A stretch of 64,000 nt of DNA from Escherichia coli (GCF_024223415.1 NZ_CP100500.1), one strand, 5' to 3'. Positions 3,316 to 6,175 are shown, numbered from the stretch's first letter. Made by a program: numbers and translations. The notes: generated from the letters alone by a model not told the origin.

Positions 3316-3426
3316 TTCAAATATGTTTATTTAGCGGATAACGTTAAAAATCATTAATCAGTATGCTTAATATAACAGGCTGGAGAAAAGAGGAAATAGG
3401 ACTGGTGCTTCAGTACTGAGCGGAGT

Positions 3427-3444
3427 TTCTTACAGCTGTAGGCA
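3427..3444. promoter_or_regulatory. EvgA-box-like 18-bp inverted repeat upstream of safA-ydeO
   Basis: ttcttacaGCtgtaggca matches recalled EvgA consensus TTCYTACA-NN-TGTARGAA at most positions. Confidence 0.5.
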
Positions 3445-3562
3445 GAAGTTTATATCTTATAGTATGTAGTTTAATTTAATCCATGTGAGCAAATTGCGCG
3501 ATAATAGTCAATGAGGAATTCTTCTGCTGTGCGGATGACAGCAGAAGAAATGAGAAGAGGCA

Positions 3563-5842
3563 TTAATTTGATGGTTCTAATTCAACCGGAATACTTTTAT
3601 AGCCAGGAATGCCACTTAATGGATCGTGGTTATCAAGTGTTAGCATGTGATTCGATTCTGGAAAATAGGTCACCAGTGAGCGGTCAGCCATAGGGTAAAT
3701 GACCACTTTTAATCTATCCATGCGGCGTGAGCTGCGCTTACCGTCTGGCGTAAGCGCAATAAGATTAACTCTTTCGCCGTTTTTTACACGGCAAATTTTA
3801 GCTTGTTTAGCACTCATAAAGACCACATCTCGTTGACCGAATACCCCTCGATAGCGATCATCCATACCATAAATCGTCGTGTTGTACTGATCGTGGCTGC
3901 GTACTGTCGCCATGACCAGCTTACTGTTAAACGCTGAAGAGGGATCTTCTAACAGCCCTTTGCTGGTAATGAAATTAGCCTTACCTGACGGCGTCATCCA
4001 GCGCCTTTCAGCAGCTGCATTTATCAGGTGAAAACCACCGGGATGACGGATGCGTTGGTTATAGTCGGCGAACTCTGGCAGCACAGCTTCAATGTCGTTG
4101 CGAATGCGATCATAATCTTCCACCAGATACTCCCAGGCTACCACGCTCTGGGGTAGTGCTGCCTGCGCGATTCCCGCGACCACTGCACACTCTGATTTCA
4201 GCATTACACCGGCGGGTTTTAACACGCCACGCGAGGCATGAATCATCGACATTGAATCCTCAACGGTTACCGCCTGCGCACCGCTTTTTTGCATGTCAAT
4301 CTCGCTACGTCCCAGAACCGGCAGAATATAGCTATGCCGTGCGGTCAGCAGATGAGAGCGGTTAAGCTTAGTGGCTACGTGTACCGCCAGATCTAATTGC
4401 GTTAACGGTACAGCGCTCGCTTCCCGATCTGGCATTGCCAGTGCAAAGTTGCCCCCCATGCAGATCAATGCTCGAGCCTGCCCTGTACATATTGCTTGCA
4501 TGCTGGCAATTGCAGCATGTCCAGGTGCTTGAGGTGGTGTGAAGCCATAGCGCTCACCCAGGCGAGCCAGAAACTCTGCAGACGGTTTCTCGGTGATACC
4601 GACGGTTCGGTCGCCCTGTACATTAGAGTGGCCACGTAGTGGGCAGATACCCGCACCAGGCTTGCCAATGTTACCTTTCATCAACAGCAGATTGACCAGT
4701 TGCTGTACATTCTGGGTACCATGTTCGTGCTGAGTGATCCCCATTCCGTAACAGATAATGGTGCGTTCGGCAGCGGCATATGCATCAGCCAGTTCGGCGA
4801 TTTGTGTCTGACTTAGTCCAGAAATACGTTCGATATCTTTCCACTCGGAATTGAGAACGTCACGGCGTAGCTCGTCAAAGCCGACGGTATGCGTTTGAAT
4901 AAATTCGTCATCAAGCAATGAGGGCCGACCTGCGGCACTTGCAGCATCATCGCGCTCAATTAACAGGCGCATCATCCCCTTGAGCAACGCCATATCGCCA
5001 CCAATGCGCACGTTGTAGTAGGCACTGGCCAACTGAGTCTCAGAGTTCGTCAGCATTTCAAACGGGTTTTGCGGTGCGGTAAATCGCTCCAGGCCACGTT
5101 CCTGTAGAGGATTGATGGCGATCATTTTCGCTCCCCGTTTCACTAAAGCGCGCAACGAAGTCAGCATGCGAGGGTGGTTTGTACCAGGGTTATGCCCAAT
5201 GCAAATGACTAAATCGCACTTCTCAAAGTCTTCCAGCAACACGGTCCCTTTACCTACACCGATACTCGCTGCCAAACCCACGCTTGTCGGTTCATGGCAC
5301 ATGTTGGAGCAGTCGGGAAAGTTATTGCTCCCGTATTCACGGGCAAAAAGCTGATAAAGAAAGGCAGCTTCATTGGAAGTGCGGCCCGAAGTATAGAATT
5401 CAACCTGATTGGGATCACTATAGCTTTGAAGGCGTGCGCCAATTTCATCGAAAGCTTGTTGCCAGCTTAATGGCTTGTAACAGTCGCTGACGGCATCATA
5501 TTTCAAAGGCTGAGTGAGTCGCCCCGCAGCCTCAAGCTCGTGGTCTCCCCAGGTAAGTAATGATTGAACCGTATTCTCAGCAAAGAAAGAGGCGTTTACC
5601 TGCTTATCCGTGACTTCCCAGGCGATTGCTTTTGCGCCGTTTTCACAAATGTCGAATGACGCACTGTGCTTAGGATCTGGCCATGCACAACCCGGACAGT
5701 CAAAGCCCTATGGCTTATTCATGTCAAACATGGCAATAACATCCTGGCGTATATCCATCTGCTTACGTACTGCATTCGCTACGGATTTAACAGCACCCCA
5801 ACCACCGGCAGCTCCCTGGTAGGATTCAATTTTTTTCTTCAT
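3563..5842 (-). pseudogene. ydeP: molybdopterin oxidoreductase YdeP (formate-dehydrogenase-like), interrupted by an in-frame TAG at codon 45
   Basis: Frame from ATG 5842 reads [15 protein letters not shown]...AMFDMNKP then TAG (5710..5708), then continues open in the same frame for 714 codons (six-frame ORF 3563..5506 is the first Met after the stop). Confidence 0.8.
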
Positions 5843-6085
5843 CTACTTATCCTGTGTGGAAATGAATTATTAGGATTTGTAATAGCGATGATGCACAGTA
5901 CATACAAAGGGATTATCGCCAACATGGATATATAAGAGTAGGGGACTACTCTCTTTCTATTTTTAATCTATTATCGTTAAACAATAGATTAAATACGATA
6001 AGGTAAGCATCATCTCTCATAGTGTTTAAATTAACATATTTTTTAATATAAAAAATAAGACTCTGGCTTCAATTGTGCGCGGATT

Positions 6086-6103
6086 TTCTTACAGGTGTAG
6101 GAT
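6086..6103. promoter_or_regulatory. EvgA-box-like 18-bp inverted repeat upstream of ydeP
   Basis: ttcttacaGGtgtaggat, near-identical to the motif at 3427..3444. Confidence 0.5.
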
Positions 6104-6175
6104 AATAGCCTTCACAAAATAATTATCCGCGCAATTTTCGTGAATGGAGCGCATAGACCAATGTCAAAATCACAA

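Follow-up and report, generated by a model that had tools for sequence, protein, structure and literature searches.

EvgA-type inverted repeats upstream of ydeP and safA-ydeO in an Escherichia coli strain with a ydeP amber codon

Gene context of the two repeats

The DNA analysed here is a 64-kb stretch of the Escherichia coli genome (hereafter the window), and region 2200-6300 within it contains ydeO, safA and ydeP, with ydeQ next to them. Out of 5,426 complete E. coli genomes, 5,394 matched this region, NCTC10444 most closely, and we transferred the annotation from this near-identical genome and from K-12 (Table 1). The gene ydeN is also annotated in the region by the same transfer, on the minus strand. 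As all of these genes are encoded on the minus strand, upstream means higher coordinates throughout. An earlier, sequence-only reading had described two near-identical 18-bp inverted repeats, one upstream of safA-ydeO and the other upstream of ydeP; both are present on direct reading, and the annotation of the near-identical genomes bears out their placement.

In gene orientation, the ydeP box is ATCCTACACCTGTAAGAA and the safA box is TGCCTACAGCTGTAAGAA, with 15 of 18 positions alike. Both are imperfect inverted repeats, complementary at 6/8 arm positions, and the perfect half-site TGTAAGAA forms the promoter-proximal arm of both. The boxes are located on the upstream side of their genes, 243 nt from the ydeP ATG and 111 nt from the safA ATG. 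When both strands of the 64 kb were searched for the shared 16-nt core TTCTTACAGNTGTAGG with up to two mismatches, the two boxes were the only matches; the chance expectation was 0.07 matches, and none of 100 shuffles gave two or more.

A stem-loop directly follows the ydeP stop codon and sits ahead of the safA box. It has a free energy of -17.5 kcal/mol (z = -4.96) and is invariant across the ten E. coli genomes that we compared, which were selected so that identity upstream of ydeP ran from 100% to 87.7%. Owing to its weak T-tract, the stem-loop was passed over by the terminator scan, and an Rfam search of window positions 2000-6500 gave no match at E <= 1. The structure is probably a weak, leaky terminator that parts ydeP from the safA promoter. 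With this hairpin lying between the ydeP stop codon and the safA box, each box is assigned to a promoter of its own, and leakiness at this point would fit those papers that name ydeP-safA-ydeO a single operon.

Table 1. Features of the ydeP-safA region; coordinates are those of the window unless a K-12 sequence is named
Feature	Coordinates	Strand	Remarks
ydeO	2282-3043	minus	AraC-family activator of gadE; annotation transfer
safA	3118-3315	minus	EvgS/EvgA-to-PhoQ/PhoP connector, first gene of the safA-ydeO operon; annotation transfer
Predicted extended -10, safA	3369..3377	minus	TGTTATATT; predicted start near 3361
Candidate secondary element, safA	3397..3403	minus	AGTCCTA; 23-29 nt gene-ward of box
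EvgA box, safA-ydeO promoter	3427..3444	minus	ttcttacagctgtaggca (= TTCTTACAGCTGTAGGCA); direct reading
Stem-loop directly after ydeP stop codon	3519..3549	minus	Perfect 12-bp arms TTCTTCTGCTGT/ACAGCAGAAGAA
ydeP	3563-5842	minus	Acid-resistance oxidoreductase gene, amber-interrupted; annotation transfer and translation
Predicted extended -10, ydeP	6028..6036	minus	TGTTAATTT; inferred start near 6020
Candidate secondary element, ydeP	6056..6062	minus	AGTCTTA; at about -42 to -36, 23-29 nt from the box on its gene-ward side
EvgA box, ydeP promoter	6086..6103	minus	ttcttacaggtgtaggat (= TTCTTACAGGTGTAGGAT); direct reading
ydeQ	6176-7090	minus	Annotation transfer
K-12 boxes of other EvgA promoters	L003 7514-7531, 17507-17524, 18501-18518; L005 8414-8431		

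Identity of the boxes as EvgA sites

We took the EvgA consensus to be TTCYTACA-N2-TGTARGAA (TTCYTACANNTGTARGAA), a sequence that is backed by an empirical scan of K-12. Work by Masuda and Church from 2003, by Itou et al. from 2009 and by Eguchi et al. from 2007 is said to define this consensus and the EvgA footprints, and the first two reportedly place EvgA sites at the K-12 ydeP and safA (b1500)-ydeO promoters. In the papers searched, the strings TTCYTACA, TTCPyTACA and TGTARGAA were not found, and the matches to TTCTTACA were unrelated. Each window box has one mismatch to the consensus, and there is no other window position with three mismatches or fewer.

The same 8-2-8 palindrome, with 0-3 mismatches, recurs in K-12 at emrK/evgA, frc, yfdX and yegR. 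There are two mismatches in the emrK-evgA intergenic region, a perfect match upstream of frc/yfdW, two palindromes with one and three mismatches upstream of yfdX, and one mismatch upstream of yegR. A review lists emrK/evgA, frc, yfdX, yegR, ydeP, safA and gadE as the strongly EvgA-bound promoters (PMC8147483), and inverted repeats bound by EvgA have been marked at emrK/evgA, frc, yfdX and yegR (PMC3720670). An EvgA site has been reported in all directly regulated genes, and activated EvgA strongly upregulates the ydeP promoter (PMC4283999). Transcription of both ydeP and ydeO is activated by EvgA (PMC11210196), and the safA-ydeO promoter is regulated by EvgS/EvgA and damped by PhoP (bioRxiv 10.64898/2026.05.06.723403). 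The K-12 gadE upstream region (L004 7568-8367) held no consensus match with up to four mismatches and was therefore unusable as a training site.

From the five K-12 sites at emrK/evgA, frc, yfdX (two sites) and yegR we built a symmetric weight matrix, with the ydeP and safA sites excluded. A scan with such a matrix was the check that had been set beforehand for the claim that the repeats match the EvgA recognition sequence. Among the roughly 64,000 positions of the window, the ydeP box ranked first with 24.2 bits and the safA box second with 21.2 bits, in a test that is partly circular, as the training sites were found with the consensus given above, though independent of the window. The next-best window position reached 7.3 bits, 14-17 bits below the boxes, and the maxima of 200 random first-order-Markov sequences of 64 kb averaged 10.1 +/- 2.6 bits. 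The boxes are thus far above background, and the claimed match holds in an independent test at other EvgA-bound K-12 promoters.

These figures also bear on chance matching in AT-rich intergenic DNA, an explanation with some footing in the random sequences, one of which (1/200) peaked at 21.66 bits. There are two matches in the window, however, both rightly oriented and at equal distance from a -10 element, they are conserved in more than 4,700 genomes (see below), and both the core expectation and the gap in score to the next window position speak against coincidence. Chance has a negligible probability in our estimate and is effectively refuted.

EvgA contains a Response_reg and a GerE domain, and among solved structures other than those of EvgA the closest is NarL; a receiver combined with a GerE/LuxR helix-turn-helix is in keeping with dimer binding to an inverted repeat. 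As RcsB, GadE and NarL have the GerE fold in common with EvgA, and their sites also hold TCYTA/TAAGA-like cores, the palindromes might instead be sites of another LuxR/NarL-family regulator of the acid network, such as one of these. We consider this highly improbable. NarL belongs to the same family and follows the same logic, a dimer occupying pairs of inverted heptamers 2 bp apart (7-2-7), but its half-site, TACYYMT, differs from that of EvgA, and the window boxes do not fit it. The TTCYTACA-N2-TGTARGAA arrangement is unlike the NarL 7-2-7 site and the RcsB box alike. In the gad/hde island, which comprises classic GadE/RcsB targets, neither the gadE upstream region nor the other intergenic regions have a match with up to four mismatches, and the matches at this threshold are found only inside the coding sequences of hdeA, hdeD and mdtE. 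The motif is specific to the promoters listed as EvgA-bound (PMC8147483). As a separate observation, the mdtE coding sequence (K-12 L004 9887-9904) holds a consensus match with two mismatches, TTCTTACGCATGAAAGAA.

EvgA thus remains our preferred identification, and the K-12 EvgA sites of ydeP and safA provide the closest comparison. They are found at the same genes and positions, in promoter regions nearly identical to those of the window; the safA box is identical to that of K-12 at 18/18 positions and the ydeP box at 17/18. Judging from this likeness, both repeats are already-described EvgA binding sites, and the wiring is that of the textbook, with no discovery in it. A documented regulatory motif and its surrounding genes had been recognised from sequence, and this recognition is confirmed, with little discovery value.

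Conservation of the boxes

Across the ten genomes, the ydeP box is variable at 2/18 positions (position 2 and spacer position 10) and the safA box at 1/18 (position 1 only), and the specified half-site core shows no variation in either box. The 50 nt just upstream of each box contain 14-15 variable columns, and the 50 nt on the gene-ward side contain 6-7. Both boxes are under purifying selection relative to the flanking non-coding DNA. The 61-mers centred on the boxes occur in 5,317 genomes for ydeP and in 4,786 for safA.

A divergent Escherichia lineage (L014) extends this comparison. It has an intact ydeO, a 63-aa open reading frame at the safA position, and ydeP, and both boxes are kept with nearly invariant half-sites, while the upstream DNA is scrambled. 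A scan of 100,044 species representatives with CCTACANNTGTAAGAAANTCCGC (box plus flank) returned three loci, of which L014 was the first. One locus is entered under the name E. coli, and two have boxes identical to those of E. coli. With only these three loci, cross-genus information is therefore scant.

Some variants and occurrences of the boxes can be noted here on their own account. Position 2 of the ydeP box is T in the window and in eight other sampled genomes, and K-12 alone has G (AGCCTACA..., L002 6731-6748); the K-12 box thus represents a minority allele that is farther from the consensus than that of the window. Spacer base 10 of the same box is a common C/T polymorphism. A 13-kb contig (L015, JARKOR010000108.1) from a metagenome-assembled genome of Candidatus Nanosynbacter (Patescibacteria) has boxes at 2092-2109 and 4751-4768, namely a K-12-type ydeP box (AGCC...) and the safA box of E. 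coli, with the spacing seen in the window (2,659 nt). These boxes almost certainly represent E. coli contamination or mis-binning. There is likewise a safA-type box on a UMGS1713 contig (L016), and it does not differ from the E. coli one.

Promoter anatomy at ydeP and safA

In both promoters, an extended -10 pattern, TGnTAnnnT, starts exactly 50 nt after the end of the box. The safA copy is invariant in the ten genomes, and in the divergent Escherichia lineage both promoters keep the TG and the hexamer, with only the unspecified middle base altered. A published probe for the ydeP leader starts at -178 from the ATG (Gorelik 2024), which corresponds to window position 6020 and agrees with an extended -10 at 6036-6028. 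From these elements we infer the transcription starts and -10 elements of both promoters, and the predicted starts, near 6020 and near 3361, place both box centres at about -74.5.

The promoter scanner proposed another pair at ydeP, consisting of a -35 TTGAAG and a -10 TATATT (6072..6045), and found no consensus promoter at safA. We did not adopt this pair for both promoters, as safA has TCTTTT in the aligned hexamer, and because TGnTAnnnT is common to both promoters and fits the -178 leader; the scanner's pair could at most be a second ydeP start.

Between the box and the -10, each promoter has an AGTCYTA element (Table 1). The ydeP copy, AGTCTTA, is invariant in all genomes compared, the divergent lineage included. 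We read these conserved elements as possible secondary contacts. A further feature of the approximately 178-nt ydeP leader is a GC-containing palindrome at window positions 5935-5952, AGAGTAGGGGACTACTCT, with a 7-bp stem. It is almost invariant in the ten genomes. On the plus strand it was picked up as a terminator-like structure, and it would form a hairpin in the ydeP 5' UTR too.

A fixed register shared among EvgA promoters

The likeness of the two promoters is not confined to the boxes. On the gene-ward side of the box, the minus-strand sequences 6085-5976 (ydeP) and 3426-3317 (safA) give an ungapped alignment of about 100 nt, with identity at 38/60 positions and at 60/110 overall, against a shuffle control for the former of 16.1 +/- 3.3 (maximum 30 in 20,000). 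Upstream of the box, identity is 9/40, which is background. Within the aligned stretch, TCCGC, TGAAG, AGTCYTATTT and the extended -10 occur at the same spacing. This alignment suggests either a duplicated promoter module or a strong common constraint. It also raises the question of whether the boxes resemble each other mainly through shared descent, as copies of an ancestral segment of about 100 bp, which is what identity running on beyond the box at this level would lead one to expect. We regard this as very unlikely to be the main reason: descent and function are not exclusive, the half-sites are invariant across the ten E. coli genomes while nearby DNA varies, and the palindrome is also present at emrK, frc, yfdX and yegR, where the gene-ward identity to ydeP or safA is just 19-27/60.

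To compare the wider set, six EvgA-dependent promoters (ydeP, safA, emrK, yegR, frc and proximal yfdX) were aligned on the box in the productive orientation. Gene-ward of the box, 12 columns are identical in at least five of the six, compared with 0 on the other side; a circular-shift control gave 3.05 +/- 1.67 columns (P = 0.0002). Invariant in all six are CA at +8/+9, TC at +25/+26 and T at +30. The K-12 emrK, frc, yegR and proximal yfdX promoters are thus in the same register as the window boxes for CA and TC, although their downstream genes differ and their gene-ward identity is below the 38/60 seen between ydeP and safA. The motif ARTCYTM at +23 to +29 is found in ydeP, safA, emrK and yegR, with TCY at +25 to +27 in all six; frc and yfdX carry CTCTCTGATT instead of AGTCYTA. 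A -10-like hexamer is also present at +52 to +58 at emrK and yegR.

These fixed-register columns may be secondary contact sites for EvgA or for RNA polymerase. The TCYTA core, which is similar to an EvgA half-site, would sit at about -40, separated from the distal half-site by roughly four helical turns. The candidate secondary half-sites match the half-site consensus at only 4-5/8 positions by hand count. A second full palindrome after the box was also considered; the candidates 20-22 bp on match at only 8-9/16 positions (hand count) and are unconvincing. We tentatively propose, as a possible and not the expected arrangement, that EvgA promoters are composite, with the palindrome centred near -74.5, CA 8-9 nt further on, TCY(TA) at about -40 and an extended -10, and that those of ydeP and safA would be duplicated copies of this arrangement.

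The closest characterised relative of EvgAS is BvgAS of Bordetella. BvgA is a NarL-family regulator that binds inverted TTTCYTA-like heptads at fha and ptx, and its promoters combine a high-affinity palindrome far upstream with lower-affinity sites toward the -35 region. If true, the composite architecture would suggest a BvgA-style cooperative occupancy, with further EvgA protomers reaching to the -35 region. The two systems differ in organism and in the details of the consensus, and for ydeP and safA the existence of secondary EvgA sites is hypothetical. The fixed-register architecture of about 100 bp that is common to ydeP and safA and recurs in part at other EvgA promoters may be new, and it could guide a better model of the EvgA regulon than the 18-bp matrix alone.

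Proposed action of the boxes and the ydeP amber codon

Taken with the known biology of K-12, the sequence features make it very probable that the repeats are EvgA operators at two separate promoters, one for ydeP and one for safA-ydeO, where they would serve activation. In the proposed scheme, mild acid would lead EvgS to phosphorylate EvgA, a NarL-family protein with a receiver and a LuxR/GerE-type helix-turn-helix. A dimer of EvgA would then bind each 8-2-8 palindrome about 74 bp upstream of the start, and, once bound, would activate a promoter in which the extended -10 is accompanied by no good -35. Binding of EvgA to the near-identical K-12 ydeP and safA promoters (PMC8147483) and their activation by it are known from the literature. 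With a box and a promoter to itself, behind the hairpin, safA-ydeO should be inducible by EvgA independently of ydeP.

This is of relevance here because ydeP is interrupted in the window. The amber codon claimed for it is real, as both translation and comparison show: codon 45 is TAG (plus-strand cta, 5708-5710), and GAG in NCTC10444 and K-12. The change, G>T at ydeP nucleotide 133 (Glu45, GAG>TAG), is the sole difference from NCTC10444 across 2200-6300, and of the complete E. coli genomes with this segment, 5,291 in number, 0 have an exact match to the 61-mer centred on it. The amber codon, a feature of the window strain and not of K-12, would appear to be a private, recent change or else a sequencing error. 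Absent from all 5,291 genomes, it has arisen too lately for one to expect decay of the promoters, and intact promoters beside so recent a lesion therefore say nothing on selection after gene loss.

The sequence-only reading had also remarked that the wiring of the locus is conserved despite the amber codon. The remark is true of the cis-elements but uninformative, since the amber codon is private. Neither evgA nor evgS is within the 64-kb window, and the assessment therefore covers the cis side of the wiring alone. At both promoters the EvgA operator is intact in this strain, which also has the private ydeP nonsense mutation. The mutation should remove YdeP only, and the EvgA>YdeO>GadE and SafA>PhoQ/PhoP branches should stay inducible, provided that evgAS is intact elsewhere in the genome.
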